Shown here one piece after another: positions 1,356-55,110 of a stretch of DNA of 64,000 nt. Each line of letters starts with the position of its first letter. The stretch's first letter is position 1. The notes below the pieces were generated by a model that searched no databases, was not told the origin of the DNA, and saw only the letters and a program-made list of their open reading frames with translations. This DNA is from an uncultured Pseudomonadota bacterium (lineage in GTDB: Bacteria > Pseudomonadota > Alphaproteobacteria > Rs-D84), in the NCBI GenBank assembly GCA_949298405.1, contig CASFWA010000001.1, positions 231-64,230 of the forward strand, written 5' to 3'. Position numbers and translations under genes: made by a program.

Positions 1356-1489
1356 ATTTTCCCCCATTAAAAATTTCTTTAACTCTTCTTTTACAAACTA
1401 TAACAGATTAAAGATTTTTATCTCAACCAAAAAAACAACTTAAATTTGTGTTCAAAACATCTGTTTTTTGTGATATTATTCAAAGTATG

Positions 1490-2800
1490 AAAAGCAGAAT
1501 TATTATTTTTTCGTCCCTGCTTTGTTTGTGTGGGACGACATCTGGTTTCGCATCAGAATGCATGGGGCCAGAATGCAATATAGAACCTATAAATATGCCA
1601 GTCATTTCTGAACCGACTGTTTTAGGAATGCCGCAAGCGGTTCCCGTTGTTGCTGAATATGCGCAGCCTGTGGAATATGTTTATGCACAGCAAATCCCTA
1701 TGCGGGAAGTGAAATTACTGTCTATCAAACCAGTACCCGAAGACACACGCCCACCTGTGTGGGACGGTACCGCAGGCGACTATGACCCACGTGGTTATGA
1801 TAAAACTGTCGATTGGCGTGACGGAGTTCCTATTTGGGACGATTCCATATCAAGTTATAAATATAAAGATTTTACAGATTGGTTCTTGCAACCAATGACA
1901 GAAGTTTATATTCGTGACGCAAGCGATGTTCAAACAATGCCTGTTGCACAACAACAACCAACTGTACAACAAGAAAACATTGATGTAATGGCACTATATC
2001 GCCAGAACATGGCCGACGCTGCCGCAACACGCGCACGCGTAGAAGAATTGCTATCCCCACAAAAACCTTCTGGAAATCTATGGGGATGCGCGGACGAAAA
2101 TGTGACAGAAACTGTTTCTGAAAAAATTGAATTGCCTGCACCGAAACCAGAATATGTGGCACAAGACCTAACAGAAGTTGTCAAGGTCACTTTCGGTCGT
2201 ACAGACGGATGTCCTTTTGAAACAGAAACAGAATGCGAAATATGGCGCAGGAAACCAATTGTTATCGAAACAGTTTCCCCACGTAGCCCCAAGATTCGTG
2301 CAGACAAAATGAACGAATTTATAAACGCGGCACGTTGCAACAATGAAATCACAGCAAATGAAGCTGTTTCGGCCCCTCTGTTGGAACGTTATAAAATACT
2401 TATGAAGTCCGCACAAGCTTGCTGCACAGACGGTATGGCTTACGCGCTTAAAAAAGCAGGTGCAACAGATGGTCTGGTTTACAAATTCTTGGCAGATGAT
2501 GCAAACTTCTATGGGTTCGGCGCGCGTTGCCTTATGACAACAGACGAAGAACTAGATACAAAATATCCAAATACTTCTACTGCAGCAGTTGTAGCAGATG
2601 TTAGAAACGGATGTTTATGCCGCGGTCGCCAATGGTTCGAAGCAATGCTGGCACCTTTTAAAGATGTTTATAAAGCATTGCCAGAATTTGCGAACGAAAA
2701 GTTCTACTACACTTACACCGATGGTTTGCAGCGCGAAATAACAGTATCTGTAAACAACGATGTTCAGAATGTGTTGAACCAACTAGAACGGTGTCCGTAA
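1490..2800 (+). CDS. Hypothetical exported Cys-containing protein
   Basis: ORF with a signal-peptide-like N-terminus (MKSRIIIFSSLLCLCGTTSGFA) and many Cys; no recognisable family. Followed by a terminator hairpin at 2821-2846. Confidence 0.5.
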   Translation, partial: KSRIIIFSSLLCLCGTTSGFASECMGPECNIEPINMPVISEPTVLGMPQAVPVVAEYAQPVEYVYAQQIPMREVKLLSIKPVPEDTRPPVWDGTAGDYDPRGYDKTVDWRDGVPIWDDSISSYKYKDFTDWFLQPMTEVYIRDASDVQTMPVAQQQPTVQQENIDVMALYRQNMADAAATRARVEELLSPQKPSGNLWGCADENVTETVSEKIELPAPKPEYVAQDLTEVVKVTFGRTDGCPFETETECEIWRRKPIVIETVSPRSPKIRADKMNEFINAARCNNEITANEAVSAPLLERYKILMKSAQACCTDGMAYALKKAGATDGLVYKFLADDANFYGFGARCLMTTDEELDTKYPNTSTAAVVADVRNGCLCRGRQWFEAMLAPFKDVYKALPEFANEKFYYTYTDGLQREITVSVNNDVQNVLNQLERCP

Positions 2801-2820
2801 TAAAACATAGTCATGTAAAT

Positions 2821-2846
2821 AATCCCCGCAGAAGTGGGGATTTTAT
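2821..2846 (+). terminator. Rho-independent terminator (AATCCCC-loop-GGGGATT-TTTT)
   Basis: 7-bp perfect stem plus T-run immediately after the stop of the 1490-2800 ORF. Confidence 0.65.
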
Positions 2847-2870
2847 TAATGAAAATCTTCTATAAGGAAC

Positions 2871-2897
2871 AAAAAAACGCGTCTAGGCGCGTTTTTA
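2871..2897. terminator. Palindromic hairpin AAAACGCG-TCTAG-GCGCGTTTTT, bidirectional terminator
   Basis: Perfect palindrome with an A-run 5' and a T-run 3'; lies at the 3' end of the minus-strand gene 2895-3665. Confidence 0.6.
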
Positions 2898-3665
2898 TCT
2901 TTGTTGTGTATTTGTATTTTGTCGCGATTTATTTTGCTGGTCTTCTATTGCCTGCATAACTGCGATATTTAATGCATACGCACAGTTATTTACCGCATCA
3001 CGTTGTGCCGACAAATTAGTACACGCCTCTGGTTTTGTATATTTATTGTTATTAGCATCATATAAAACCCCGCTAATAGAATACGCCCTGGCAAATTCTA
3101 AATCTTTCTGCAACTGACGATATGCTTCACCAATATTACCCGCACTTACTGCCTGCAAAACTATACGAATATTATTCTGTATACAAGACAAACCATCTGA
3201 TGTACTAGATTTTAACAAACAATTTTCAGCACCTATTAATACAACATTTCTATCGCTGGAAGCAGAACTGCTTGAAGAAGACGAACTTGGTGCACCTGCG
3301 GCCTCTAATTGCGCAGTTAAAACCGCTTTCTGCAACTGGGTTTTAAAACGGCTTATTGTCGCCTCTAAAAAGTCATATTGCTTCTTTAACTGCTGCGTCA
3401 TTATAGTTGTCTTTAATGCAACCACATCACGCATTAATTGTTTATCAGAATCATTAGTCGGATTAGATACCAACCCAATATTATAAACGTGTGTACTGCA
3501 TAATGCCAATTCTGGCGTTATACGGTCATTATTATCATCACCGCAACCATTATCTGTTGCAGAATACGCAGGTAATGTAAACATCAATGCACTAATTATG
3601 CCCCCAAACGCAAGCGCACGTCCCGCATCAGAAAACACAGAAAAGATGTTTTTTATCGACTTCAT
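2895..3665 (-). CDS. Exported hypothetical protein with coiled-coil and poly-Ser tract (Cys-rich family member)
   Basis: Signal-like N-terminus, SSSSSSSSASS run and Cys pairs. Start codon directly abuts the stop of the upstream 3666-5852 gene. Confidence 0.5.
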   Translation of the reverse strand: MKSIKNIFSVFSDAGRALAFGGIISALMFTLPAYSATDNGCGDDNNDRITPELALCSTHVYNIGLVSNPTNDSDKQLMRDVVALKTTIMTQQLKKQYDFLEATISRFKTQLQKAVLTAQLEAAGAPSSSSSSSSASSDRNVVLIGAENCLLKSSTSDGLSCIQNNIRIVLQAVSAGNIGEAYRQLQKDLEFARAYSISGVLYDANNNKYTKPEACTNLSAQRDAVNNCAYALNIAVMQAIEDQQNKSRQNTNTQQR

Positions 3666-5825
3666 TTACTTCAAAAGACCCTCTAATAAATTTGTAGAAC
3701 TACCTACAGAAAATATACCGCCACTAATTATACCATTCTGGCACCCATATCCCAATGTATAACTTAATACTTTAGAACCACACATGCATTCATCTGCGTT
3801 CATTATACCACCTGCAGCTTCACATGCATCCTTATCAAAATCCCAAACACGAGAAACCGAAGTTGTAGCAACAGAAGAATTACTTGTCATAATCTCGCAA
3901 GTTCTTTTTATATTTTCATCCGATATTCCACTGCAATCACAAGTTGATGTAGCGCTATTCCACTTTGCACCATAAGAAGAATTATCTTCACAAATTTCTC
4001 TTATTAAGCCACCAGAATTTGTGAAATACTTAGTGTCCTCTGCTGATTCGCCCTTAGAATTTACGCACATAGCACGTTCATAATCAAATGTAGAATACTC
4101 ACCACCACCTGGACAAGTGCATTCACCTTCCCCGTTCTTAGCATCTTTTGCAGGTACCCATTGAGAATTCTTACTTAAACTATTATCACATACACACTTA
4201 AGGTAATTATAACCTTGCAAAGCAGAACATTTCATCATTACGCTTTGTGTGCTTGCGCCAGTATCACCTTGGGCAATCTTACCGTCAGAAGTATATAATC
4301 TTTCTAAATCATCATCACGAACACAAACTCTATCTGGCAACTGCTTTAAACTTGCATACTTTTGTAAATCTTGAAATGTTGTAGCATTCACTGCGCAATA
4401 TTTTACACCATCTGGGTCTGCACTTTTATTCTGTCCAAACCGATTGCCACCAAATACAGCAGGTGCATCCTGTTCTATCATACGTTGCAAGACTTCTATG
4501 TCAATAGATGCCTGCTTCTTACGATTACGGAACAACGCGGAATTATCCAATGCTTCTGATGCGCAACCTACGCGAACTTGTACACCATCAACTGTTCCCA
4601 TTTCTGGATATAACCAATTCCTTTGAACTTCTGCTTCATCTGTCAACATCTTTATCAACTGACAACCACCATCTGACATAGGAACGACTTGCCCGACTTC
4701 GCACTGCGCGCCACCACGAACAGCACCTTCTGCAGTTGCAACAGATACAGACCTACCGTTTACACAATTAGTTCCATTATAATGCATTACTTGCCCAGGC
4801 CCGCATAAATACTGTCCCCAAACATTGCAAGTACCATTCAGCATCATATAAATATCTGTTATATCAACCCCGACAGATTGCGCCAAAATCAATGCGTCAT
4901 ACAGCTCATCTAAAACGTTATTATATGGTTCAAAGAAATTCATCGCTTTTTGCTTGAACGTCTTTACACGTTTCGGTCCTGTACAATTATTTCCAGTTGT
5001 ATCACAACCTGCATATTCAAATGCAGTATTCATTGCCGCTTTTACCTCTTTTAAAGCGACTTCTGCATTTTCTATTTTTGATAAAATTTGCCCTGAAATC
5101 TGTTCGCGCGCAATAACATCCGCAGAAACACCCGAAGCCGCAGCAACACTTTGTGCAGTGGTCAGACCACCAGATTCTGAATTATTTGATGCTGTTGTAG
5201 AAGTTGAAGCCGATGTACTTGGTTGTGCGGTATTAGTATTAGCCTGTGCAATTGCCTGGGCAGTTAACTGTTTCTGTTCTTCCAATGCGGCCTGTAATTG
5301 CGCTGTGGTTTCCGCGTTTTGCTGCTGCATTTGTGTTTGCATTTGCTGCATCTGAGCCTGCATTTGTTGCAACTGTTGTGCACTTTGCTGTGCCGCCGCC
5401 TGAGCCGCAGCAACCTGCGCATCAGCGGCCTGCTGATTTGCTTTTGCTGTGGAATTCGCCACTATCTGTGCAGAAATATATTCTATTAAATCGTCGCCGT
5501 ATTCTTTACAGGATTCATTAGATTCAACACACCCCGCAACAATAGGACGCGCAATTTCCAATGTTGTACAACCACCTGTCGCACACTTTGGTTGTGCACA
5601 ACGCAATATAAGCGCATTACAATTACCAAAATCTGCCGCTGGCGCGTTTGCCATACTATTCGAACGAGCATTTACAAAATTATTCCAAACATTATTATTT
5701 ATCGACCCCGATGTCGGATTATACGCAGTCAAATTACTGCCCGCCGTAGTTGCAACAGGTGCAGAAATAGCATCTGAAGACACTAATGCTAAAGCAACTA
5801 GCAAAAATCTGGATATATTCTTCAT
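3666..5825 (-). CDS. Large exported Cys-rich protein with N-terminal 6-Cys module, Q/A-rich coiled-coil and S/T-rich linker
   Basis: Signal peptide (MKNISRFLLVALALVSS), module C-x6-C-x4-C-x4-C-x12-C-x5-C at about nt 5490-5630, and a QQMQAQMQQMQTQMQQQ tract encoded by CTG/CAG-rich DNA at 5270-5450. Confidence 0.55.
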   Translation of the reverse strand: MKNISRFLLVALALVSSDAISAPVATTAGSNLTAYNPTSGSINNNVWNNFVNARSNSMANAPAADFGNCNALILRCAQPKCATGGCTTLEIARPIVAGCVESNESCKEYGDDLIEYISAQIVANSTAKANQQAADAQVAAAQAAAQQSAQQLQQMQAQMQQMQTQMQQQNAETTAQLQAALEEQKQLTAQAIAQANTNTAQPSTSASTSTTASNNSESGGLTTAQSVAAASGVSADVIAREQISGQILSKIENAEVALKEVKAAMNTAFEYAGCDTTGNNCTGPKRVKTFKQKAMNFFEPYNNVLDELYDALILAQSVGVDITDIYMMLNGTCNVWGQYLCGPGQVMHYNGTNCVNGRSVSVATAEGAVRGGAQCEVGQVVPMSDGGCQLIKMLTDEAEVQRNWLYPEMGTVDGVQVRVGCASEALDNSALFRNRKKQASIDIEVLQRMIEQDAPAVFGGNRFGQNKSADPDGVKYCAVNATTFQDLQKYASLKQLPDRVCVRDDDLERLYTSDGKIAQGDTGASTQSVMMKCSALQGYNYLKCVCDNSLSKNSQWVPAKDAKNGEGECTCPGGGEYSTFDYERAMCVNSKGESAEDTKYFTNSGGLIREICEDNSSYGAKWNSATSTCDCSGISDENIKRTCEIMTSNSSVATTSVSRVWDFDKDACEAAGGIMNADECMCGSKVLSYTLGYGCQNGIISGGIFSVGSSTNLLEGLLK

Positions 5826-5925
5826 ATTCTCTCTTAAAATCAATTTTAGCATAAAAAATATGCTCTGAAAAGATAAAAATCACGCAACAAACCCAATACA
5901 CAACAAAATTATCCTTAAAAATAAT

Positions 5926-7737
5926 TTGACAAAATATCTTTTTGTATATACCATTGTTTGCATGATTATACAAGATGGCGTTCTTTCTGATGCAAATATT
6001 AAAGACCTTGATTCCGATGGTGCTTTGCACATTCCGGAAGGTGTACAAATTGTCGCTTCTGACATTTTAACAAACTGCCCTAAATTAAAAGCAATATATT
6101 TTCCAGAAAGTGTAAAAAAAATTTTTGACAACGCCTTCAACGACAACAAAAACCTAGAAACTATTTATTTCGGAGAAAACACAAAAAGACTTTCTTCTGA
6201 ATCTTTTAGCGGATGTGACAATATAAAATTTATAAAAGTAGCCAGAAAGTGGAAAGGAAATTTCATAAACTTTTTCTTTTACACCTGTAATAACTTACAA
6301 AAAATAATTAGAAAAAATACCGATGGCGCGCTTGTCGAATATGAAATATACAATTTTAAAACTCATACTTTTTTAAAAAAGAGCCAACATAACATCGGTG
6401 ACACAGAAGTTGCCACAGTCCAAAACATATCTTTTGACGGCGATAAAATAAATGGGGATACTTTTTATATTATAAAAACCCCAAAAATAGGTGTTATGGA
6501 AGTGTCTTTGGAAAAAGCACTTAAACGCGCAAAACAACTTTTAATAATCAAGGAATTTAAACGACAAATATGGTTGGCAAAAACAAAAAACAATATTACA
6601 GATGATTCTTTAAATATTGAAACCATATTAGTTTCTGCATTAGATAAAACACTGACAACTAATAAAATATCTTTAAAAAAGAATAATTATATTTTAATCA
6701 AAGGCTTTTTTAAAAATTTACCTAAATATATCAAATATATATCTTTGATGCAGAAAAAATATCCAAACGCAAAACAAAATCTAGACGAATTGACAGATGT
6801 CTGCTTGGAAGACTTAATTAAAATTATTACCCCAAAAAGAAAGTCATTAAATAAATCTTGTACACACCTACTAAAAAAACACCCTGTTTCTAACAAAGAA
6901 ATGCAAAACATGGTTTCCATAGGGTTCAAAAACCCAGGTGCTTTTCCTGTTTCTTGGCTACGCAATCTTCCCAAAGAAAAATATGGGGATGCTACAAAAA
7001 AACTACACAACCTATTAAAAAACGCAGCATCAAAAATGTATTCCACTTCTGTTAAAAGCATATTTCCAGAAGAAATGGAAAAACTTGCAAAAAATATAAC
7101 AAAAATTATAAAGCAACACATAGAAATACAATACCTATCAGCGGGCCACTTTTCAAAAACTTACACTCTGCAAATACCTGGTGATAAAAAATACGTATGG
7201 AAAATATATCATTGTGATAATGGGTACAACTATATGTCTTCTTGGGGACACGACACAGAATTACAAAATTCTTTCTTATTATCTGGGAAAAAATATACAG
7301 GCAATATAAAATTTAGAAAAATATCTACGGCTGGTATTAGTAATCAACGTGGTGAAATATATTTAATTTACCCATTTACAGAAGACATACCAAAACAAAT
7401 AAATATTCAGACCAAATATATAAAATTTAAACGCGCCGTTGTATATGATGAAAATATTATTAGTAATTGTATAAATCGTACTTTTATAGACTTGGGTTCT
7501 ATTCATATAAATCAAGAAAGATGGTACCAACCGCTTCCTATTAGAAAAATTGCAAACACAATTTTATACCATTCTTGGAAAGAACTTTCTTATGTACTGA
7601 CAAATTATTCTTCGGACCAAATAAAATCCGCCACAGATTTTATAGAAAGAAACATGTCAAAAGAACTTATAACAGAAGGCATACTTAATAAAAAAATAAA
7701 TTATCTAAAAATAGAACTACAAAAACGAATAAGATAA
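5926..7737 (+). CDS. BspA-type leucine-rich-repeat protein with long N/K-rich C-terminal region; no signal peptide (candidate secreted effector)
   Basis: N-terminal about 110 aa show the BspA-like LRR pattern (ILTNCPKLKAIYFPESVKKIFDNAFNDNKNLETIYFGENTKRL...CDNIKFI). Gene is markedly AT-richer than its neighbours. Track start is TTG; an in-frame ATG lies at 5962. Confidence 0.5.
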   Translation: MTKYLFVYTIVCMIIQDGVLSDANIKDLDSDGALHIPEGVQIVASDILTNCPKLKAIYFPESVKKIFDNAFNDNKNLETIYFGENTKRLSSESFSGCDNIKFIKVARKWKGNFINFFFYTCNNLQKIIRKNTDGALVEYEIYNFKTHTFLKKSQHNIGDTEVATVQNISFDGDKINGDTFYIIKTPKIGVMEVSLEKALKRAKQLLIIKEFKRQIWLAKTKNNITDDSLNIETILVSALDKTLTTNKISLKKNNYILIKGFFKNLPKYIKYISLMQKKYPNAKQNLDELTDVCLEDLIKIITPKRKSLNKSCTHLLKKHPVSNKEMQNMVSIGFKNPGAFPVSWLRNLPKEKYGDATKKLHNLLKNAASKMYSTSVKSIFPEEMEKLAKNITKIIKQHIEIQYLSAGHFSKTYTLQIPGDKKYVWKIYHCDNGYNYMSSWGHDTELQNSFLLSGKKYTGNIKFRKISTAGISNQRGEIYLIYPFTEDIPKQINIQTKYIKFKRAVVYDENIISNCINRTFIDLGSIHINQERWYQPLPIRKIANTILYHSWKELSYVLTNYSSDQIKSATDFIERNMSKELITEGILNKKINYLKIELQKRIR

Positions 7738-7748: not shown

Positions 7749-7778
7749 AAAGAAACGCCCAAACGGGCGCTTCTTTAT
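7749..7778. terminator. Bidirectional terminator hairpin (AGAAACGCCC-AAAC-GGGCGCTTCTTT)
   Basis: Long stem with one mismatch between convergent genes (LRR gene + and 1052-aa gene -). Confidence 0.6.
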
Positions 7779-10700
7779 TCCATACTGGTGCTAATTATAT
7801 CACCATACATACCAACCTCGTCTGCACCTATATAGCAGCGGATGTGCTTACCAACACTATCCATCCATTCGTTATATGCCGCTTTTTCTGCAGAATCCAA
7901 ATTAGTATCTTGGATATCACGAGTCAACTTATTTACAATCAATGTACCAACAACACCCGACGCAACTGCACCGCCTAAGTTAATCAAAGAACGAGTTCTA
8001 TTTTCTTTTGTTGCATCTGCATTTTGTGTTGTATTAGCACTGCCTGCTGCAACACTTACTGCGTTTTTCAAAGAATCCAATTCATTATTCGCCGCAGTTT
8101 TTGCTGCTGTCTTGGCCGCAGTATCAACAGTATTGTCGTCTTTTACAAACGAGCCAGCCGCTGTTGTCACTGCCTTGCGTGCAGAATCAATATTTGCAGA
8201 AGCAGCCTTTGCATTCGTTGCCAAAGTGATTAATGCTTCACCATATGTCAGCGCTTTTGCTCCATCTGTTTCTGCTTTATAAAAAGCCAAGATTCTGTCA
8301 TATTCTTCTGTTACATTTTGTGTATTAACTGTGTTTGCACTAGCAGATTTAGAACTTGAATTGCCTATTAAACCACCCAAGAAATCGCCATCTTGCATTG
8401 AATCAAACAAGTATCCACCACCAATTGCAGAACCTAGACCACCCAATACAGTCAACCATGTACGTGTACGTTTTTGTGACTCCGCTTTGTCTTCTACACT
8501 TTCTGCAGCAATAGCATTACCGATTTCTTCCAGCGCACTTGATGGTATCCAACTGCCACAAGTAAATGTATCACCTGCTGCAAAGTATGCATTTGACCAA
8601 TCACTACCTTCACGTATAGCATCCTGAATATTCTTATCATCAGACTGAATTGTTATACGGATACGGCAGAACGAACCATACAAATCATTACTTGCAACGA
8701 AATCCTTGGTTTCCAAACCTGCAACACTATAATTTGTAGGAACTTTGTTGTTTTTCAACTTTACCCACATATATGTACTGCCCATATCTTTGTTACCGAC
8801 AATACCACCCGCATTGCTGGACATACACATATTCTGTTGCTTTGTCAGTTTCGCATTGTACTTTGCCTGCGCTTCCATTTCCAAATCCGCAATTAAATCA
8901 CGGAAGATTTGTCTTTCAGCCAAATTCTGTGCATATGTTGTCTGAGAAACCATCTTTGGATATATATACTGACCACTGGCATCGTCACAACGACCTGTCA
9001 CACCATCACCGTTATCAGCGGTTGTACACAACAGATTTCCATCTGCATCAATATCCTGAACTTCCGCTGTAATGCTGTAATTACCAGCATCTAACCAACC
9101 TTCACGAACAGTCGTAATACCACTGCCCCATGAATTTGCTGTATAAGATGAATTTGCAGAACTACGCGCCATTTCAGCTTTGATATGTTCTTCACATACA
9201 CTATTATTCTTTACTGTATTCAAGCACAATCCCAAAACAATTGTATGATCTAAAACACCGCCAACTTTATTCATACTGCTATCAAAACTATCATTACCTG
9301 TATTCGTCAGAGTTGAATATATATCTGTACGATTGCGATAACAATTCTGATAATCTGTACCACACATAGACTTTACACAACTTGTCGCAATAGATTGACA
9401 CTGCTTCTTCATCTGGTCTAATGCAGATTGATTATAAGAAGTAGACAAACTTGCATTCAATGTTGCAACCGCACCAACCGGGTCAGGATTTGACGCATCC
9501 ACATCATCTGGCGCAGTAAACAACTTGTCAAATATGCTATTTTCTTCAAATATCAAAGCACCAGTCACACTATCGAATGTAGCCGCTGCATACTGGCAAG
9601 CAGTATCATTATTTACAACCGCTTCACACCCCATTTTTATACCTTCCATTGTAGAAGGATTTGTGACACCTTTTACCTTATTTGCACTATTAAATGCAGA
9701 CGCATAACACGCCGCGCCACTTCCTTCACCACAAGTACGCATAGCACAAGAAACAATTGTTTCCGAGCAACGTTCTTTTACTTTTTTATCGAATTGCGCA
9801 ATTAAATCGTCAATCTTTGCACGCATAGAATCATTCATACGCGAAGAATATGCTTCTGAATAAATTGCATCTTTATTATCTTCATCACGCAACTGAGAAT
9901 TTGTCGGCATAACACCATTGCTTAAAAATGTTGCATAGCAATATTTGTTGGCACCAATTGTATCCAAACAAGCATTCTTCAAGAATCCAGAAACTTCGCT
10001 ACGACTAACAGTTGTCTGAACCAAATCACTTGTAGATGTGCTTACCAATGTGCCATCTGTGCTATTTACATTTTCTACATATTTTATAATTTCCTGAGAA
10101 CTACCTTCCTTGCACTTATAAGGATTTGACGCACACGCGTTCAAGAAACATTGGTCAACAACCTTATAGCAAGTAGACACCGCATTTACTGCCGCCAACG
10201 CCGCACCTTCTGAAATCATAATACCGATACGGCTGTTGCTTGTAGGATTCGCAGAAGTATTTGTAGAACCAAATAATTCATTCAACCCATCATCCTGGCA
10301 GCGTGCTAATGTTGATTCACAGAATAATTTCTGCTTTTTGAATTCTGTATTGCTTGTGCACAATTCAAAGTCTGTACCACAAACATCTTCTTTCTTTAAA
10401 CAGTTTGTATATCTTCTGACACAGTCACTTGTATCCAAACGATTGCTAATGGACGCGGCCTCAATCAACTGACCCAAAACACTGCCATCTGTTGGGTAAA
10501 CATATTCACCATCAGAATTCTTATTCGTAAACAATGTCTGATTGCTTGTACCAAACAAAGAATTCACACCAGATGTGCTACATTGCAACAAGGTACTTGC
10601 ACACAATGGACGTTTCGAAAAGAACAATGTTTTGTTTGTACATTCTTCAAAATTAGCACCACAAACATCAGAACCCTTTAAGCAACTTGTATATGCTTCG

Positions 10701-10888
10701 ATACATTCTGCGTTTGCCAGCAACGACGATGTTGTCGAAGATGTACTGCCACTTGTAATATAAGCAGTCATCGTTGGCATACGTGAAGACGCAGTACCTA
10801 TTACACTAGGACGCGCCGTCAATGCAAAAGCCGCCGGAACAACGCCGAAAGCAGCCATAAATCCCATTGTTTTTTTCAGAAGACTCAT
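7775..10888 (-). CDS. Very large exported Cys-rich protein with tandemly duplicated 6-Cys module, helical A/T/K-rich region and C-terminal hydrophobic segment
   Basis: Start placed at the MSLLKK Met preceded by GGAGTGAG (RBS-like). Signal peptide present. The module C-x6-C-x6-C-x6-C-x12-C-x6-C occurs twice (aa about 75-130 and 169-224). Confidence 0.55.
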   Translation of the reverse strand: MSLLKKTMGFMAAFGVVPAAFALTARPSVIGTASSRMPTMTAYITSGSTSSTTSSLLANAECIEAYTSCLKGSDVCGANFEECTNKTLFFSKRPLCASTLLQCSTSGVNSLFGTSNQTLFTNKNSDGEYVYPTDGSVLGQLIEAASISNRLDTSDCVRRYTNCLKKEDVCGTDFELCTSNTEFKKQKLFCESTLARCQDDGLNELFGSTNTSANPTSNSRIGIMISEGAALAAVNAVSTCYKVVDQCFLNACASNPYKCKEGSSQEIIKYVENVNSTDGTLVSTSTSDLVQTTVSRSEVSGFLKNACLDTIGANKYCYATFLSNGVMPTNSQLRDEDNKDAIYSEAYSSRMNDSMRAKIDDLIAQFDKKVKERCSETIVSCAMRTCGEGSGAACYASAFNSANKVKGVTNPSTMEGIKMGCEAVVNNDTACQYAAATFDSVTGALIFEENSIFDKLFTAPDDVDASNPDPVGAVATLNASLSTSYNQSALDQMKKQCQSIATSCVKSMCGTDYQNCYRNRTDIYSTLTNTGNDSFDSSMNKVGGVLDHTIVLGLCLNTVKNNSVCEEHIKAEMARSSANSSYTANSWGSGITTVREGWLDAGNYSITAEVQDIDADGNLLCTTADNGDGVTGRCDDASGQYIYPKMVSQTTYAQNLAERQIFRDLIADLEMEAQAKYNAKLTKQQNMCMSSNAGGIVGNKDMGSTYMWVKLKNNKVPTNYSVAGLETKDFVASNDLYGSFCRIRITIQSDDKNIQDAIREGSDWSNAYFAAGDTFTCGSWIPSSALEEIGNAIAAESVEDKAESQKRTRTWLTVLGGLGSAIGGGYLFDSMQDGDFLGGLIGNSSSKSASANTVNTQNVTEEYDRILAFYKAETDGAKALTYGEALITLATNAKAASANIDSARKAVTTAAGSFVKDDNTVDTAAKTAAKTAANNELDSLKNAVSVAAGSANTTQNADATKENRTRSLINLGGAVASGVVGTLIVNKLTRDIQDTNLDSAEKAAYNEWMDSVGKHIRCYIGADEVGMYGDIISTSME
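10261..10711 (-). repeat. Intragenic tandem duplication (about 282-nt period) encoding two copies of a 6-Cys module
   Basis: Two about 56-aa segments align with identical Cys spacing (ECIEAYTSCLKGSDVCGANFEECT... / DCVRRYTNCLKKEDVCGTDFELCT...). The duplication is also visible as similar antisense ORF translations at 10236-10472 and 10542-10763. Confidence 0.7.
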
Positions 10889-10981
10889 TAGACTCACTCC
10901 ATACTTATTATTTAAGTATAACATAAAATACATTTTTGATAAAGAAAAATATACGCAAAAATAAATACTTTTAACAAATTT

Positions 10982-11008
10982 AAAAGGGGCTTTTGCCCCC
11001 CTTTTTCA
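10982..11008. terminator. Hairpin AAGGGGC-TTTT-GCCCCCC with T-run; terminator for rluD (-)
   Basis: GC stem flanked by A/T runs just 3' of the rluD stop. Confidence 0.55.
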
Positions 11009-11009
11009 C

Positions 11010-11972
11010 TTATCCTATTTCATCAAGAATACATTTTAATTCTTGCATATCATCGGGCATATGCGCCTTAAAATGCATTTCCTTTCCCGTCACAGGATGT
11101 TTGAAATCTAAAATCTCGGCATGCAACATCTGACCCGTATGTTCTTTTATAAATTCTAATAGTTCCGGATTTTTTACACTGCCTAATCTTGAAGAACCAC
11201 GTCCGTATACGGGGTCACACAAAACCGGAAAACCATGTGCCGACAAATGTACCCTTATCTGATGCGTTCTGCCCGTTAATAAATTACACCTGAACAACGA
11301 AACGCCTGCACGCGTCCACACATCTGCAACTGTCACTTCTGTATGAGCAGGTTTACCACCCGTCTTTACCATCGACATCTTCTGACGGTTCCTTGATGAA
11401 CGCGCAATATTACCTGTTATATCTGCGCTTTCCCAATTAGGAACACCCCAAACAAACGCAATATATTTTCTTGTCAAATCGTGTTCAGAAAAAGTCTTTA
11501 CCAACCCACGAAATGCCGCATCAGATTTTGCAAAAACCATTACACCACTGGTATCCTTGTCCAATCGATGAACAACACCTGGACGCGTCGCCCCACCCAG
11601 CGCAGACAAACTTGTATACGACAATATATTCTGAACCAAAGTCCCTGTTTTATTCCCAGCAGACGGGTACATAACCACACCACGCGGCTTATTTATTACA
11701 ATAATGTCTTCATCTTCGTATAAAATATCTAAATCAAAATCTGACGATATATTTTCTGCGGCAATATCTGTTTTTCGTTCTGGTATATCAACAACCACAA
11801 TATCCCCTAATTTTAACCGTTGTGAAAATTTTTCAGCAGAACCATTTACAGAAACATTAAATTTCTGTATTTCACTACGAGAAAAATCAGAAAGTTGTGC
11901 AACCAAAAATTTATCTAGCCGCAACCCGACTTCTTCTTCTGATACCACAAATTTTAAATTATCTTGTCGCAT
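11010..11972 (-). CDS. rluD: 23S rRNA pseudouridine synthase, RluA family (RluD-like) with N-terminal S4 domain
   Basis: S4-like N-terminus plus RluA catalytic motif HRLDKDTSGVMVFAK and downstream conserved blocks. Confidence 0.8.
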   Translation of the reverse strand: MRQDNLKFVVSEEEVGLRLDKFLVAQLSDFSRSEIQKFNVSVNGSAEKFSQRLKLGDIVVVDIPERKTDIAAENISSDFDLDILYEDEDIIVINKPRGVVMYPSAGNKTGTLVQNILSYTSLSALGGATRPGVVHRLDKDTSGVMVFAKSDAAFRGLVKTFSEHDLTRKYIAFVWGVPNWESADITGNIARSSRNRQKMSMVKTGGKPAHTEVTVADVWTRAGVSLFRCNLLTGRTHQIRVHLSAHGFPVLCDPVYGRGSSRLGSVKNPELLEFIKEHTGQMLHAEILDFKHPVTGKEMHFKAHMPDDMQELKCILDEIG

Positions 11973-11980
11973 ATAAAAAT

Positions 11981-12472
11981 CTACTTTATATCTTTCCAGT
12001 CTGTGCCTTTTTTACATTCGGACAAATTTATTGTTAATTCCCTGTCTTCACTTTCAACCGGGCATGTTAATAACCCTGTACTAACAGCCTGATCCGCTTC
12101 ACGCGTGGCATTCCGCCAAGTAAAATTTATCTCTTTCGGAGGATAGATACACGCAATTCTTAGTTCTCCTTCATGTTTGTCGTTCGGCCCCAACCAAACA
12201 CGCACACCTTCGCCAAGACCATAGCAAGGAAAACCATCTAAATAATATAAAACAAGCCCCTTGCCAACAAGACTTGATGAAGTTATAAATTTTCCACGAT
12301 ATTCATGATAAGACAATCCTGTAAGCCCTTCCCAATCCGTACTGGTAGAAAAAATACTAATACGCGGTTGGGGTGCAGGCGTTTCGCGATACCCAGGCCT
12401 ATTACCAGTCGCAGCCCAAGAACCAGACATACAAAGAAGTACCATAACAAATACGAAACCTAAATATTTCAT
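11981..12472 (-). CDS. Small exported hypothetical protein, operonic with pilin-like genes
   Basis: Signal peptide (MKYLGFVFVMVLLCMSGSWA). Its start overlaps the upstream gene stop as ATGA (12469-12472). Confidence 0.45.
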   Translation of the reverse strand: MKYLGFVFVMVLLCMSGSWAATGNRPGYRETPAPQPRISIFSTSTDWEGLTGLSYHEYRGKFITSSSLVGKGLVLYYLDGFPCYGLGEGVRVWLGPNDKHEGELRIACIYPPKEINFTWRNATREADQAVSTGLLTCPVESEDRELTINLSECKKGTDWKDIK

Positions 12473-12996
12473 TTTCCCCCCCCTGTTTTTTCTAGTTCTA
12501 CTGCTATTTTCTTTACATTCTGTGTCGGAACAGATAACACATGCATAAACTTTGCATTACTGCCAGAATCAAGTAATGTAGCAGGCGGCATAAAACGTTG
12601 TCTATCAACAACTTTACCAGAATCATCATAAGAAACTATTATTATCCAAGGCACACCATAAATCTGGTCAGACCTGTTATGAACCTGACCACTAACCACA
12701 AAACGAACAATACCAGAATCATCTGTGACTGTGTTTATTTCCGAAACCTCGGCTATTAAAGGGTTTTCTTGTATTATTTTTATTCGATGTTGTGCAATAA
12801 CCGCAACTGCAAAAACACCAGCCGCCAATAAAGCGCAACAAGCAGCAATAAATGTTAACCACGCATTACGACGAGGAGGCCTTTGTACAGTCCATGTATT
12901 ACCACATACCGCACACTTTACTGGCCCCTTGGGAACAGAATCTAATGAATATTCTGTTTTACAAAAATTACAAACTGTTTTCATACGACGATTCAT
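12469..12996 (-). CDS. Zinc-ribbon (MJ0042-type CxxC...CxxC) single-pass membrane protein, DUF3426-like
   Basis: N-terminal CNFCKTEY...CAVCGNTW, then a TM helix (LTFIAACCALLAAGVFAVAVIA) and a C-terminal domain; translationally coupled on both sides. Confidence 0.6.
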   Translation of the reverse strand: MNRRMKTVCNFCKTEYSLDSVPKGPVKCAVCGNTWTVQRPPRRNAWLTFIAACCALLAAGVFAVAVIAQHRIKIIQENPLIAEVSEINTVTDDSGIVRFVVSGQVHNRSDQIYGVPWIIIVSYDDSGKVVDRQRFMPPATLLDSGSNAKFMHVLSVPTQNVKKIAVELEKTGGGK

Positions 12997-13004
12997 AGCA
13001 TATT

Positions 13005-14327
13005 TTATTCCAAATTCAACTTTCTATATTTCGCACTAACTGTCTTTTGTATATCTTTTATCGCATTCATATAGTCGGATACTGTGGCATTACTATTTGC
13101 AGAAACCGCACTAAATATTCTTCCAGACTCTGTATTTTTCCCGTTTTCTTCATAAGTCGCCATAACCGCCATACGATTTAAATCTTCAAATTCTACATCT
13201 AAAAAATTTGCAACCCCCAATTTTACATCCCAGTAATAATTAGGATTAATCGAATCTTCTATTCTATTATAAACAACCAGACGAGGAGTAATAGACCCAG
13301 CAAAACCAACCGTGACATACATTGTATCTATACGTCCTGATGTCATATCAATAGACTTATTAACCTTTAAAACAACAGGCTCATTATCATATGTATACGA
13401 TGAAAAACCACCCAAAGTCATATTAGAAACCCATAAATCATCAGTTGTAAAACTAGAAAACTTCGCGGTATCATCTAAACTTAACACGCCAGAAACTTCC
13501 ATAGTTCTGGAATCCGCAGACATAATGCCAGACACAGTTGCACTTGCCGTCTCGAAAGATTTATCTATTGTTGTTCTATTTTCAAAAATCGTATTATTTG
13601 CAACCGCAACCCCCAAAGTCAATGTTTCATCAAACTGTGCACCAGAAGCATTAAAGAAAGACGTATTTATAATATCATGCCCACCTAAATTTAACCCCGA
13701 TAGCATTGTCGCATCAGACGGATTTTCTGACGGGACCCGCCACAAATATAATGCATTGTCACGATTAACAGATGTTGTTTCTACGATACCACCAGAAACA
13801 GTTAAACCTAAATCAACAGTATCAATATGCCAAGCACCAAACGTACCATATGCACGATTACCTTCGATAAACCCCATAGAATCCCCACCAAGCGCAACTA
13901 TTTCACGTGTTCTAAGCGGTGAAATTTCATCAGAATTAAAAACTATAACTCCCTGCAAGGTGGCTTTGTCATCAAGGTCATTAGACTTTAAGATTCTTAA
14001 TTGATAGTTATCTGCTGACGCTTCAACCAAATCAGCCGACACACCATAATCTACCAAATCCGCTAAATTAACTCTTGTGATATTTCTACCAACTGTATTT
14101 AATAAAGTTTCGCGATTATCAAGAATATAACGTTCCAGCGCAGTCTGTATATTCCCCATCTGATTTGTTATTGCTATATTCTCTGCACGTAATGCAGCAT
14201 TTTTCTGATATTTGAAAATAAACGGCATTACTATTGCTGCCAATGCGACACTCATCAGCAACTCTATCAACATACTACCCTGTTGCATATCGTTGTTTCT
14301 GAAAAAAATCTCTTTTCTTTTCTTCAT
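13005..14327 (-). CDS. Giant pilin/pseudopilin-like protein, paralog 1 (class III signal G|SMLIE)
   Basis: N-terminus ...QQG-SMLIELLMSVALAAIVMPF with Glu at +5 and a hydrophobic helix. The start at the MKKRK Met forms an ATGA overlap with the upstream gene stop. Shares a central LxxLNLGG motif with paralogs 2 and 3. Confidence 0.6.
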   Translation of the reverse strand: MKKRKEIFFRNNDMQQGSMLIELLMSVALAAIVMPFIFKYQKNAALRAENIAITNQMGNIQTALERYILDNRETLLNTVGRNITRVNLADLVDYGVSADLVEASADNYQLRILKSNDLDDKATLQGVIVFNSDEISPLRTREIVALGGDSMGFIEGNRAYGTFGAWHIDTVDLGLTVSGGIVETTSVNRDNALYLWRVPSENPSDATMLSGLNLGGHDIINTSFFNASGAQFDETLTLGVAVANNTIFENRTTIDKSFETASATVSGIMSADSRTMEVSGVLSLDDTAKFSSFTTDDLWVSNMTLGGFSSYTYDNEPVVLKVNKSIDMTSGRIDTMYVTVGFAGSITPRLVVYNRIEDSINPNYYWDVKLGVANFLDVEFEDLNRMAVMATYEENGKNTESGRIFSAVSANSNATVSDYMNAIKDIQKTVSAKYRKLNLE

Positions 14328-15526
14328 CTGACTTCCTTTGGCATAGCAGACTGCCATCCCTTAGACAATATTACTTTAAACGATTCTTTTGATGGCGCAG
14401 ACGGTTTTTCAGCACGACTTAATGTCAAAGATGCAAATCGTGGAGGCGTAAGCGACGGGAACACCCACGAGCCTATTTTTAGCGGTGCGGTTGTAGACAT
14501 CAATAATTCGCCAGATATTGTTAACCCAAAATTATCATAAAAAACTATTTCTTCTGTTGAAACATAAGATGTTGTCACAGAATGCGCCGCAATACCAGTA
14601 AAAGCACTTATCGTCCTAGATGTATCAGACTTTAAATTTAAATTATTTGCAATATTTACAGAATTATTTACTGTCGCCCTATCTGTAATTATACGCCCCT
14701 TGGTAGTATATTTATTTCCATTTAATGAATTAGCATATATATTTCGAAACCCAGATATATCACCAGTCACACGCAAACTACCTAAATATGCAGTATCCCC
14801 ATAAAGATTGGCACCAGAAGAAAAATAAATCGTATTAGATAATAAACTACCACTTTCAATAAACGAAGTAGACGCATTCTTTATTTCTGCTGATTTTGCT
14901 ATTACCCCACCAACACCAAAGACATTTTTGTCATCCATATTTAAATCACGCAACATCATATTTAATTTGTCTTCACCATTAGTTGTACGGTGTAAATATT
15001 TTGATTTGTCTTCCCCTTCTATATCACGCGATATACGATATATTAAATCCCCTTCTTTAAAATCCGGCGCAGCAACCGCCCATGTATCACCATATGCAAC
15101 CCCGTCAATTCCAACTACTGCCGCATCCATACCTATATGCTTTGCAACTTGCATTGTGCGCAAATCGCTTTCATCTAAATCAAAAGACAAATAAACATCT
15201 GTAACTGTCGCACCATTTACATAATACTTATCAATAAATCCTGTTGACGGTAATTCCGATATCTCATCTAATTCTTCATCAGACAACTTTATCTGCGCAA
15301 TATCTGGCCAACTCGCCTGATTTAACCTTACATAATTTAAAACATCATCGCGCAAAGATATTATCTTTTTCGCCTCTACCATATCTCGTAAAGAATTATT
15401 TGTTTCACTAATCTGACTGTATAAAAACGGGGTTGCCATAGCAACAATAGCCATAGCCAGTAAAACTTCTAGCATACTGGAACCATGTTCAGATTCTAAA
15501 AATTTCTTTGTTTTATAAACAGCCAC
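14324..15526 (-). CDS. Giant pilin/pseudopilin-like protein, paralog 2 (class III signal G|SSMLE)
   Basis: N-terminus ...EHG-SSMLEVLLAMAIVAMATPF with Glu at +5. Central motif LRDLNMDD..VFGVGG. Overlaps the upstream gene by 14 nt. Confidence 0.6.
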   Translation of the reverse strand: MAVYKTKKFLESEHGSSMLEVLLAMAIVAMATPFLYSQISETNNSLRDMVEAKKIISLRDDVLNYVRLNQASWPDIAQIKLSDEELDEISELPSTGFIDKYYVNGATVTDVYLSFDLDESDLRTMQVAKHIGMDAAVVGIDGVAYGDTWAVAAPDFKEGDLIYRISRDIEGEDKSKYLHRTTNGEDKLNMMLRDLNMDDKNVFGVGGVIAKSAEIKNASTSFIESGSLLSNTIYFSSGANLYGDTAYLGSLRVTGDISGFRNIYANSLNGNKYTTKGRIITDRATVNNSVNIANNLNLKSDTSRTISAFTGIAAHSVTTSYVSTEEIVFYDNFGLTISGELLMSTTAPLKIGSWVFPSLTPPRFASLTLSRAEKPSAPSKESFKVILSKGWQSAMPKEVR

Positions 15527-16868
15527 TTTTACCTTCCAACAAACACTGCTTTATGTCTATTCTTTTCTCTAATCTTTGCCAAAATACATACTGGCAAATT
15601 ATATATTGTGATAAAGACTTCTGATTATAACGACCTTCTAAATCTGTTATTATTGATTTGCAATCAACTGTTTTTCCATCGTCTGACGAAGGTTTATCAA
15701 TAATAGCAAAAACAGAATTATCAACTGAATCCAATAACGCATCCGGCAAAACAGATGTCCCAGCAGGCCTGATATCTAAAACAACAGCACCTGTTTCACC
15801 CCTATTTAACGCATCAGATGTTTGGTCACGCATCGTGATATTCGATGCAGCAATATACCCCGTTTCTATTCCACTTCTAGAACTATATAGTAGATTATCT
15901 GGATCAATATAAACGTCTTGTCCACGCGACACATTTATAAAAGAATCAACCTCAAGTCTTTCTAAACTAAAATTGATATTATCCGTAATAACATCACCAC
16001 CAACATTCCATTTTGTCGGTCCATAAAAACTATTTTTACCTGCACTCATTGCAAAATCATATACAGACGCAGAAAACGATTCAAAATTCCCCGTATCACC
16101 AAATTTAGAAATAGTCTTTGCATTCACAGAATTAACGAACAAAGTACCACGCGTGACGGACAAAGCAGCCTCGCCTGATTGACTTTGAAATACCGCTTTT
16201 TCAGAAGCCATTACTTCTATTTCATTTTTTGTTTTACGACCGTTTTCTTCCCCGAACAAAGATAATGTACCAAATTGCCCAGTTTCAAACTCACCACGTC
16301 TTGCAAAAACATCCCCCGCATTATTAAAAACAAAACCTCCCATATTCAAATCAGTCAAAAACGCACTATTATCTAAATTCTTTTCATTCCTTTTTACAAC
16401 ATCAGAATAAACTTCATTTAAAGCCAAGCCGACTATCACCCTGTCGCCTTCGGCCGCTGCATAAAAACCTATTCTACGAACAAGTTCCGCAATCTGAATC
16501 CCCGATAAATCACCACCCGTCAATTCAAGATACGCACTTACTTGTGTAGCATCTTTATTTATAACCAAAGCAATATCCTGCCCAAGTGCTGTACGCGGGA
16601 CAAAACCTAATGGCAAACCATATGGTTCTAGCAAATCGGCAAAAGCGTTGCCAGAAATTACAGTCGTATTATAAGGTAAATCATTAGCACGTTCGCGAAT
16701 AAAAATTCGTGCCGCAGTCTGTGCAGTTTCTACCTTTCGCGTAGAAGAATACATCTGCGCATCCACATCCCTTGAACTTAACCGTTGCGCAAAAAATGGG
16801 ATAAAAGAAAACATTAATGTCAATGCTAACAAAGCTTGTAATAAAAAATTTCCACTTTGTTTTTGCAC
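15513..16868 (-). CDS. Giant pilin/pseudopilin-like protein, paralog 3 (atypical leader G|NFLLQ)
   Basis: N-terminus MQKQSG-NFLLQALLALTLMFSFIPFF with Gln instead of Glu at +5. Central motif LTDLNMGGFVFNNAGDVF shared with paralogs. First gene of the operon. Confidence 0.55.
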   Translation of the reverse strand: MQKQSGNFLLQALLALTLMFSFIPFFAQRLSSRDVDAQMYSSTRKVETAQTAARIFIRERANDLPYNTTVISGNAFADLLEPYGLPLGFVPRTALGQDIALVINKDATQVSAYLELTGGDLSGIQIAELVRRIGFYAAAEGDRVIVGLALNEVYSDVVKRNEKNLDNSAFLTDLNMGGFVFNNAGDVFARRGEFETGQFGTLSLFGEENGRKTKNEIEVMASEKAVFQSQSGEAALSVTRGTLFVNSVNAKTISKFGDTGNFESFSASVYDFAMSAGKNSFYGPTKWNVGGDVITDNINFSLERLEVDSFINVSRGQDVYIDPDNLLYSSRSGIETGYIAASNITMRDQTSDALNRGETGAVVLDIRPAGTSVLPDALLDSVDNSVFAIIDKPSSDDGKTVDCKSIITDLEGRYNQKSLSQYIICQYVFWQRLEKRIDIKQCLLEGKSGCL

Positions 16869-17015
16869 TATCTTCCTCCTACACCTGCAAGAATAGCAAC
16901 TGAAAAAAAATATTGCAATCAGTTTTAAGATACTTTACTATTTAACTTGTTGATAGATGATAACGAATAAAAACGTTATTATTTAAGTTATAATTTCCTA
17001 TAATAAAGAAAAGAA

Positions 17016-17360
17016 ATGCAAAGTAAAAAAAATCAATCGTCTGTTGGGCTGATGATTCAGCGCTGCCACAAATGGCGTCAAAAAAGAAAACAATATATGG
17101 ATTTAGCACGTCAAACTGCTGATGAAATCGAACGCGAAAGACTAATGCAAGCAGCAGAGCATTACGGTCGTATCGTAACCGCAGAACAAGGTAAAATTGA
17201 TTCTACGCGCGACCCAAAAGATAAAGCACCTGCTATCGAAGAAACAATCGACAGTACTGATATAGTAGATTCAGCAGAGTCAGTTGACTCTACAGATACC
17301 GCAGACACAACAGATGAAGAAGAAACAACTTTCCCAGACTTTATAACAGATTTAAAATAA
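17016..17360 (+). CDS. DUF4167-like small basic/acidic protein
   Basis: N-terminal basic region then RERLMQAAEHYGRI motif and an acidic S/T/D tail; this family is common upstream of dnaX in alphaproteobacteria. Confidence 0.5.
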   Translation: MQSKKNQSSVGLMIQRCHKWRQKRKQYMDLARQTADEIERERLMQAAEHYGRIVTAEQGKIDSTRDPKDKAPAIEETIDSTDIVDSAESVDSTDTADTTDEEETTFPDFITDLK

Positions 17361-18984: not shown

Positions 18985-19000
18985 ACACAAGGATAAAAAA

Positions 19001-47440: not shown

Positions 47441-47956
47441 TTAACGTTCCTTTATTACATATTTTTTTTCAAATGCTTTTTCTAGGAATTCGTCTAATAA
47501 ACTTTTGCCATTAGTTATCGGAGGATATACTTGCTCTAAATTTTTCTGGTTTATAACGATTAATTCTTCGTTTTCTTTTTTATTTACTGTATATTTTTCA
47601 AAATGATTTCGTCTAACAAAAGGACTTTCTATTTCATAAATATAATCATTATTTACTCTTTTTAACTCTTTTATAGAACGTCCAACCAAAGCCTCTAATC
47701 CCCAAACAGGTTCAGATTTTAATGTCTTATCACATAAATCAAAAGAAAATTTTATCCCCAATTTAAAAGACTGCGGTCTATCATAAAAAATAAAAGAACC
47801 CGATGTTCGCTTGCCAGATATTGTATATATTTTGGTAAAATCAAACTTTTTTAAAAATTCTTTTACTTTTTCTGGGTCATCAAACTCTTTACGAACTATA
47901 TTTAATAAATTTGTTTCAAATACTACAGATGATTTAATATTCATAACCGCCACCAC
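47441..47956 (-). CDS. Hypothetical protein, tandem paralog A (171 aa)
   Basis: ORF with no family signature; shares the block F[KR]LG..F..DC..L.KS...WG...LVGRS with the adjacent gene. Confidence 0.45.
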   Translation of the reverse strand: MVAVMNIKSSVVFETNLLNIVRKEFDDPEKVKEFLKKFDFTKIYTISGKRTSGSFIFYDRPQSFKLGIKFSFDLCDKTLKSEPVWGLEALVGRSIKELKRVNNDYIYEIESPFVRRNHFEKYTVNKKENEELIVINQKNLEQVYPPITNGKSLLDEFLEKAFEKKYVIKER

Positions 47957-54941: not shown

Positions 54942-55110
54942 TCCTAACTATCTATTTTAACATCTTTAGAATATAATAAACCAAACGATTCGGTCAAGGC
55001 AATATATTTACAATTATAAAAAACTAAATAAAAACAATATAATAAACTCAATTTCACATGAAACAACTAACTCTATTGACAAATAATATTTTTTGACTAT
55101 ATTTAAAAAT

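Follow-up and report, generated by a model that had tools for sequence, protein, structure and literature searches.

PilV, a minor pilin and tip adhesin of roughly 430 aa in the conjugative type IVb thin pili of R64/IncI1-IncI2-type plasmids, represented in Pfam by Shufflon_N (PF04917), is known, together with the pilin PilS, to stabilize the mating pairs of IncI plasmids (PMC9045228). A canonical locus carries a single pilV gene next to pilS and a PilT-like ATPase gene, and the receptor-binding end of the plasmid protein is variable. Large minor pilins have also been described for other type IVb pili, namely TcpB for the toxin-coregulated pilus of Vibrio cholerae and CofB for colonization factor antigen III of enterotoxigenic Escherichia coli. 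CofB forms a trimeric initiator, exposes a lectin domain at the pilus tip and binds the secreted protein CofJ, the gene of which belongs to the same operon (PMC6048534). Some type IVb pili secrete a protein encoded in their operon (PMC9565799, PMC10120004). In the alphaproteobacterium Caulobacter crescentus, the DUF3426 domain of the zinc-ribbon protein ZitP is required for the biogenesis of polar pili (PMC5182063, PMC5182065). Here, a chromosomal operon is described that lies in a 64-kb stretch of DNA (“the window”; contig CASFWA010000001.1, assembly GCA_949298405.1) from an uncultured alphaproteobacterium of the order Rs-D84. Three consecutive genes of this operon, A, B and C, probably encode ancient and divergent PilV-type minor pilins of the Shufflon_N superfamily, which would build the tip of a pilus for cell attachment.

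The relation to PilV is most evident for C. A search with this protein returned 847 relatives, none of which has a name. When a hidden Markov model (HMM) of the C family was compared with 1.84 billion cluster representatives, it retrieved 291 relatives, 105 of them at E <= 1e-10, and extended to proteins of the Pfam family Shufflon_N (E 1e-10 to 3e-8). These distant matches are themselves recognized by the Shufflon_N model (P0377, 1.9e-73; P0345, 2.3e-45; P0356, 3.1e-25), and P0377 shares 80% identity with plasmid genes that bear the annotation [quoted passage not shown]. Many of the 291 relatives carry the motif YLWR.PS...DATM.S.LNL.GHDI, and the prepilin-type signature is kept in nearly all distant members of the C family. 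A tblastn comparison of C with 72,556 plasmids matched 194 records, with the top places almost all annotated pilV (23-26% identical residues along 54-76% of the C sequence; best E 2e-6), while alignment of the C-family profile to an annotated PilV of 431 aa by hhalign gave a probability of 96.5% (E 8.5e-10, 203 columns). The motifs paired in this alignment lie well past the hydrophobic helix: YQLRILKS with YQIRVLEP, GFIEGNRAYGTFGAW with GFVDKGIAKGSLGAW, and YLWRVPS..DATMLSGLNLGGHDI with YLYRKSVPGHPELNTMSTALNMGGNDV. Homology to the constant region of PilV extends over the first ~240 residues of C, and YQLRILKS, GF.EG..AYG.FGAW and YLWR.P...DATM..LNLGGHDI are the constant-region motifs present in the triplet proteins. 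Judged from these comparisons, C is a remote homologue of PilV. No literature that mentions Shufflon_N was found.

The original prediction had noted that A, B and C are 3-4 times larger than ordinary pilins and had interpreted them as an uncharacterized pseudopilus or surface fibre module. However, their length of 400-451 aa is normal for the family, since PilV examples have 414-441 aa, and with the homology of C to PilV the three proteins do not represent a new kind of protein but an extension of the PilV family. The same prediction had considered that the genes might turn out to belong to a known adhesin family, which is borne out in part, as C is homologous to the PilV tip adhesin. The family HMMs of A and B reach Shufflon_N proteins weakly in a small database, where the B-family HMM matches one of them (L092) at 2e-7.

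All three proteins start with a class III signal, in which a short basic leader and a Gly at -1 precede a hydrophobic helix some 20 residues long. The leader of A has six residues (MQKQSG↓NFLLQ) and is followed by Gln at +5; B (...ESEHG↓SSMLEV) and C (...MQQG↓SMLIEL) have Glu at this position. These leaders, which had been recognized from the start, are conserved in 72-81 orthologues per paralogue, with Gly-1 and Glu/Gln+5 invariant or nearly so, including an invariant +5 Gln in the orthologues of A, and all three proteins share Pro18-Phe19 in the same register. An ordinary Sec signal peptide, which the original prediction had named as an alternative explanation of the N-termini, was rejected because the hydrophobic stretch spans about 20 residues, an AxA site is absent and Gly-1 and Glu+5 are invariant.

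In pairwise BLASTP, A, B and C show only marginal similarity (22% over 188 aa for A and C). Comparison of the family profiles by hhalign connects B with C (probability 98%, E 1e-13, 266 columns), A with B (90%, E 1.7e-6) and A with C (91%, E 1.1e-6). At the profile level, the three proteins are thus distant paralogues, as had been proposed, and A and B are more diverged paralogues of the PilV-like C. The internal LxDLNMGG block that was originally said to unite them is real and is aligned in all three by profile comparison, but it is looser than stated (LTDLNMGG in A, LRDLNMDD in B, LSGLNLGG in C). Each protein ends in a paralogue-specific C-terminal half of about 200 residues, and A has four invariant C-terminal cysteines.

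The N_methyl model of Pfam, which is short and often misses pilins with a residue other than Phe at +1, scores B below threshold (E 0.06, 13.4 bits, cut-off 21.2) and does not match A and C, and comparison of the profiles with Protein Data Bank (PDB) sequences gave only marginal matches to the N-terminal helices of geopilin and PilA. AlphaFold2 models, which were built with 40-47 close homologues, are of low confidence; in the model of A, the N-terminal domain has a type IVb pilin fold, with a long N-terminal helix packed on an antiparallel β-sheet. A head with a pilin fold is proposed for each of the three proteins.

A further pilin-like gene, which the original prediction had overlooked, lies 2 kb from the triplet on the opposite strand (Table 1). 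Its product scores just below the cut-off of the Pfam PilS model (2.3e-4, 21.6 bits, cut-off 22) and at 0.01 with N_methyl, and tblastn matches it to a plasmid “type 4 pilus major pilin”, to BfpA and to a “type II secretion system protein” (best E 3e-5, 94% coverage). Conversely, R64-type PilS matches 13 orthologues of this 153-aa pilin at 1e-6 to 2e-4. The PilS-like protein is the probable subunit of the filament. The gene is located directly 3' of dnaX in 65 loci and is always accompanied by the gene of an OmpA-domain lipoprotein, the start of which overlaps the pilin stop by 1 nt. The resulting dnaX-pilin-ompA-skp block is kept intact where genomes are rearranged (L038, L075, L077, L080), and a role of the lipoprotein in the pilus is conceivable.

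The original prediction had also pointed out that assembly genes are missing, and Pfam scans covering the long open reading frames (ORFs) of the window indeed detected no PilB, PilC, PilD or secretin. Nor were assembly genes found in the 10 kb beyond its right end. Unlike the canonical pil operon with its pilS, pilU and assembly genes, the operon itself holds no assembly gene. To some extent, related genomes fill this gap. Comparison of reference plasmid pil proteins with all ORFs of 92 loci revealed that in three congeners (L048 1-3390, L064 1-3357 and L073 1-3327; minus strand), pilO, a 233-aa gene and an ATPase gene follow directly after dnaX-pilin-ompA-skp on the same strand. The PilO proteins (422-436 aa) score 32.0, 28.0 and 26.2 bits with Pfam PAP_PilO (cut-off 26.7), and the gene in the position of pilP encodes a secreted coiled-coil protein. 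The T2SSE-type ATPase (E 1e-53) has more than 477 aa, including an N-terminal extension of about 140 residues, and matches plasmid PilQ at E 5e-37; its gene is cut by the end of the locus. This gene order is that of R64, pilO-pilP-pilQ. The cluster extends to the edge of the sequence analysed at these loci, so that genes for the platform protein, the peptidase and the secretin may follow immediately outside it. The best-supported interpretation is that of a chromosomal, R64-related type IVb pilus with scattered genes, to which the A-B-C operon supplies three PilV-type minor pilins.

The six genes of the operon are arranged on the minus strand at the positions originally given, with one correction (Table 1). 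Counted from its first ATG, the ORF of C spans 13005-14357, which would give a protein of 450 aa; translation almost certainly begins at the ATG of position 14327, because database gene calls have 440 aa and the family alignment begins there. Similarly, the zinc-ribbon protein likely starts at 12984, an internal Met where the family consensus begins. The proposed translational coupling is confirmed by the junctions: the start of B overlaps the end of A by 14 nt, ATGA overlaps connect B with C (14324-14327) and the zinc-ribbon gene with the gene for the 163-aa protein (12469-12472), and 8 nt separate the latter from rluD. A terminator-like hairpin downstream of rluD is the probable 3' end of the transcription unit. 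Together with a promoter-like site upstream of A, of a kind that a consensus scan finds hardly more often than in shuffled sequence, it fits a single six-gene unit without proving it.

Table 1. Features of the six-gene operon and of the neighbouring pilin locus (positions within the window).
Feature	Position	Strand	Description
Paralogue A	15513..16868	minus	451 aa, GTG start, putative PilV-like minor pilin
Paralogue B	14324..15526	minus	400 aa, GTG start, putative PilV-like minor pilin
Paralogue C	13005..14327	minus	440 aa from ATGA-coupled ATG; most PilV-like of the three
Zinc-ribbon protein	12469..12996	minus	175 aa, ZitP-like, bitopic
Small exported protein	11981..12472	minus	163 aa, Sec-type signal peptide, four cysteines
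rluD-type pseudouridine synthase	11010..11972	minus	Last gene of the unit
Terminator-like hairpin	10982..11003	minus	9-bp stem, 5 GC pairs, T run; directly past the rluD stop (consensus scan)
Promoter-like site	17000..17027	minus	TTTACT-16-TATTAT; upstream of A, within the 147 nt that separate it from its divergent neighbour (consensus scan)
PilS-like major pilin	18998..19459	plus	153 aa, MKQESG↓RSLIEV, Glu at +5, C-terminal Cys pair
OmpA-domain lipoprotein	19459..20136	plus	Lipobox LTGC, Pfam OmpA 3.7e-14

Conservation of the block was followed with a C-family pattern search in one genome per GTDB species, which yielded 94 relatives, 80 of which were kept. All 80 are uncultured gut Alphaproteobacteria, many of them named Candidatus Enterousia, and the closest is 98% identical. 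The order A-B-C-zinc-ribbon-163-aa-rluD is found in 80/80 loci, with gene gaps only at contig ends, which is far more than would arise by chance. Relative to the window, identity drops to about 51-60% in A-C, compared with 68-84% in rluD. Conservation is even along each protein, without a hypervariable end. The G+C content of the operon is similar to that of the rest of the window. The six-gene block is a core operon in a housekeeping context and not an island, and an origin by recent horizontal transfer or as the relic of a mobile element was rejected because of the even G+C content and the strict synteny. Enterousia, which belongs to the order Rs-D84, occurs commonly in the guts of humans and animals; its genomes of about 0.75-1.0 Mb encode no respiration, little biosynthesis and no flagella, and a partner-dependent lifestyle has been proposed (PMC12306168).

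Two genes adjoin the operon in most of these genomes. On the divergent side, a small acidic DUF4167-like protein is encoded at 17016-17360 (plus strand), in the same position in 72/80 loci. On the other side, rluD is followed in 64/80 loci by the gene for a 1052-aa cysteine-rich protein with a hydrophobic C-terminal region (7775-10933, minus strand), for which family scans gave no match. Its residues ~850-975 are highly variable (0.18-0.41 column identity), in contrast to the remainder, and it is a candidate surface protein.

Tandem sets of three PilV-like genes are not restricted to Enterousia, but occur in unrelated lineages as well. One locus with 35% G+C (L086, 7220-11470) has a triplet of 469-455-489 aa between ksgA and recO, with best HMM matches in the same order A, B, C. 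In another with 29.5% G+C (L089, 3039-7249), the triplet measures 469-446-482 aa and its first protein has Gln at +5 like A; the B and C families matched their counterparts here, and the A-family HMM did not detect the first gene. A third locus with 64% G+C (L090, 3-3477) contains at least three such genes in tandem, the last of which encodes a Pfam Shufflon_N protein. All of these sets lie in a housekeeping setting away from visible pilus assembly genes, and genes for the zinc-ribbon, 163-aa and PilS-like proteins were not found beside them. The three-gene PilV-like set is accordingly old. The C-family search also uncovered a giant branch of 900-1240 aa proteins with a PilV-like N-terminal module (G↓SMMVEALAMLGLI...), which comprises P0327, P0343, P0361, about 30 others and L088. 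P0327 and P0343 (1000-1140 aa) end in ...Y(R/N)DPW, and no Pfam domain was found in those giant proteins that were scanned.

The association of the triplet with a zinc-ribbon, membrane-spanning DUF3426-like protein, which had been noticed originally, was corroborated. This protein combines a CxxC-x15-CxxC ribbon and a Trp four residues past the last Cys with one transmembrane helix and a periplasmic DUF3426/FxLYD domain. It exceeds the cut-off of the NCBIfam FxLYD_dom model (25.5 bits, cut-off 23) and scores below those of Pfam Zn_ribbon_4 (9.6e-5, 22.7 vs. 30.3 bits) and DUF3426 (7.7e-4, 20 vs. 27.7 bits); among family members, Zn_ribbon_4 is matched by 33/34 and DUF3426 by 16/34. The best PDB match of the single sequence is the zinc ribbon of C. 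crescentus ZitP (2nb9, E 0.033), the residue numbers of which agree with those published for ZitP, and the Trp equivalent to ZitP W35 does not vary within the family. When the family profile was used instead, 2nb9 (E 0.0064) and ribosomal protein S27e (E 0.0059) tied, and a word-based homologue search stayed within the lineage. By its architecture and the marginal match to 2nb9, the protein can be called ZitP-like, though not a proven orthologue. Like ZitP, it is an alphaproteobacterial protein with a zinc ribbon, the Trp four residues after the last Cys, one transmembrane helix and a putative periplasmic DUF3426-type domain; unlike ZitP, it has 175 instead of 311 aa and a spacer that is four residues shorter. 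ZitP, a PopZ-binding protein that brings assembly factors of the pilus to the cell pole, serves the Tad/Cpa pilus through CpaM; CpaM was not seen here, in scans that were not aimed at it.

The 163-aa protein belongs to no family known to Pfam or NCBIfam. Its gene occupies the same position in 80/80 loci, and the mature part of the protein is well conserved (0.73-0.85 per 25-aa block). The last protein of the unit, also encoded in 80/80 loci, contains a PseudoU_synth_2 domain (PF00849, 6.3e-30) preceded by a weak S4 match (E 0.023), and is a pseudouridine synthase of the rluD type.

The findings as a whole make it most likely that the operon provides the tip of a pilus for cell attachment and not an unknown kind of fibre. 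Translational coupling would favour a co-ordinated and near-equal synthesis of A, B and C, which a prepilin peptidase would then cut after Gly. The mature proteins could nucleate and cap the filament, plausibly as one heterotrimeric initiator or tip complex, with the Glu5-less A subunit outermost, while the filament itself would be polymerized from the PilS-like pilin by an R64-type machine. The pilus would most likely attach the cell to a partner cell or a surface; with a genome below 1 Mb and a probably partner-dependent lifestyle, the investment in a pilus points to attachment to partner cells. The ZitP-like protein may position the pilus or assist its assembly, and a pilus-associated function is possible for the 163-aa exported protein, whereas the linkage to rluD probably reflects mere operon packing in a compact genome.

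For the tip and initiator role, the outermost position of A and the 163-aa factor, CofB serves as the analogy. However, the CofB trimer consists of one gene product, and the trimer considered here would be assembled from three; no sequence similarity to CofB or TcpB was detected, and the C-terminal domains of A, B and C give no grounds to claim a lectin domain. The notion of a heterotrimer derives from heteromeric caps in which one member lacks Glu5, such as GspK in the type II secretion system, and the fixed order of the triplet across distant lineages likewise suggests a heteromeric tip complex. In its most far-reaching form, A-B-C would act as an obligate heterotrimer, forming both the tip and the initiator of a type IVb pilus encoded on the chromosome; together with a ZitP-like polar organizer and a pilus-bound, secreted 163-aa adaptor, it would constitute the conserved organelle by which an uncultured, partner-dependent gut alphaproteobacterium attaches to its host. 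This full version is rather unlikely.

Several observations weigh against a PilV-type attachment pilus. A, B and C stay below every Pfam and NCBIfam threshold, and Shufflon_N itself does not match any of them at E <= 1. A and B gave no direct PilV match in tblastn searches against plasmids and are tied to PilV only through C and the weak small-database HMM matches. In contrast to plasmid PilV with its variable receptor-binding end, the C-terminal halves are evenly conserved. Prepilin peptidase, platform protein and secretin were seen neither in the window nor in the 10 kb beyond it nor in the congener loci; an A24 peptidase, in particular, is absent from all of these and, among the 92 loci, occurs in the reference plasmid only. 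The pilO/ATPase cluster was seen in three congeners and not in the genome of the window, where skp is followed by lpxD-fabZ, so that the pilO-pilP-pilQ cluster must lie elsewhere in this genome. A survey of Rs-D84 gave type IV pilus genes for another lineage only (PMC12306168), and no literature linking Rs-D84 to pili was found. Finally, the heterotrimer, the tip location and the role in adhesion are inferred. The locus also differs from a plasmid pil locus in several respects: C is only 23-26% identical to PilV, there are three fixed paralogues instead of one gene, A has Gln instead of Glu at +5, and the genes form a chromosomal core operon with rluD, away from assembly genes. On the other hand, it shares with the PilV system the prepilin-type N-terminus, the similar protein length, the constant-region motifs in the first ~240 residues of C, the PilS-like major pilin alongside and, in congeners, genes for PilO and a PilQ-type ATPase with a matching order. 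The machinery, the possible lack of which had been a concern of the original prediction, is hence partly accounted for in congeners, by pilO, the pilP-position gene and the PilQ-type ATPase.

Three other explanations can be given for the same genes, none of which agrees as well with the homology and conservation. A set of different minor pilins, three in number and including one that lacks Glu5 like GspK, could belong to a short secretion-type pseudopilus that is formed by all four pilins and in which the large three make up a GspK-GspI-GspJ-like cap, pushing the 163-aa protein or another cargo across the outer membrane. The operon does encode a small exported protein, some type IVb pili provide the precedent for secreting such a protein (PMC9565799, PMC10120004), and the top plasmid match of the major pilin is annotated as “type II secretion system protein”. 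Moreover, the NCBIfam gspI model (TIGR01707) matches B, although weakly and in the N-terminal helix only (E 0.007, 16.8 bits, cut-off 44). Beyond such weak helix matches, neither GspK-GspI-GspJ nor the FimU/PilVWX-type minor pilin sets of type IVa pili show a family-level match to the triplet, the T2SSK and T2SSJ models match none of its members in Pfam and NCBIfam scans, and A, B and C are 2-3 times larger than GspI/J and homologous to one another. A secretion pseudopilus is considered improbable.

A slim chance is given to the idea that the genes retain the ancestral plasmid function and encode a thin pilus which, instead of serving attachment in general, would stabilize pairs of cells during type IV secretion or DNA transfer, as PilV and PilS do for IncI plasmids (PMC9045228). 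The VirD4/TraG-type coupling protein encoded 6 kb away (22494-24701) could be its partner, and the canonical PilV locus adjoins VirB genes. However, scans revealed no shufflon, recombinase, relaxase or other gene of a mobile element near the operon: shufflon-like repeats in 10900-17100 amount to short matches at chance level, Pfam scans of the window found no recombinase, the G+C content is like that of the rest of the window, and synteny within a housekeeping operon is strict in 80 species. It is very improbable, in turn, that A, B and C are left unprocessed, with the prepilin-like N-terminus as a mere signal anchor of three periplasmic or surface proteins, and persist as orphan relics of a lost pilus in a new role. 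In that case, the invariance of Gly-1 and Glu/Gln+5 over a long divergence would be hard to explain without cleavage and packing, and the major pilin and pilO/ATPase genes would hardly have persisted in the genus despite genomes of less than 1 Mb. The explanation is in line with the lack of peptidase and machinery genes in the 64-kb window and 10 kb beyond, with their absence up to 10 kb away from the triplets of two further lineages, and with the fact that type IV pili have not been reported for Rs-D84 (PMC12306168).

Elsewhere in the window, the coupling-protein gene (minus strand; T4SS-DNA_transf, 1.7e-50) stands alone among housekeeping genes, with no other vir gene in the window. The region 444-7737 comprises genes without family match (307, 450, 256 and 728 aa) and a BspA-type leucine-rich-repeat protein of 603 aa; it is poorly conserved among species, the 603-aa gene being 34-42% identical or absent, and two public contigs that carry the region end there. 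Two tandem, overlapping ORFs of 171 aa without Pfam or NCBIfam match lie between mutS and truB (47441-48449, minus strand). The grouping of parB, parA and gidB (rsmG) at 53281-56636 suggests that the replication origin is near, and most of the window shows a negative GC skew. The genes at 59227-63810 (minus strand) form a complete operon for a MacB-type ABC exporter, with a TolC-like outer membrane efflux protein, an HlyD-type adaptor, an ABC ATPase and a MacB/FtsX permease.

The assignment of A, B and C to PilV-type minor pilins extends a family of plasmid-borne adhesins to chromosomal forms that are triplicated, lack a shufflon and keep a fixed order across distant lineages. The analysis also shows that several hundred clusters of “hypothetical proteins”, including relatives of 1000-1200 aa, have the PilV constant region. 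If the heterotrimeric organelle exists, it would provide the first heteromeric tip of a type IVb pilus, as the initiators CofB and TcpB are each the product of a single minor pilin gene, and the triplets in unrelated lineages with reduced genomes would mark a widespread and unrecognized attachment module. For Enterousia, four previously unnamed core genes are assigned to a type IVb pilus, in addition to the pilO-ATPase cluster of its congeners. The pilus thereby becomes a testable candidate for the contact organelle of a bacterium that is thought to depend on partners (PMC12306168).

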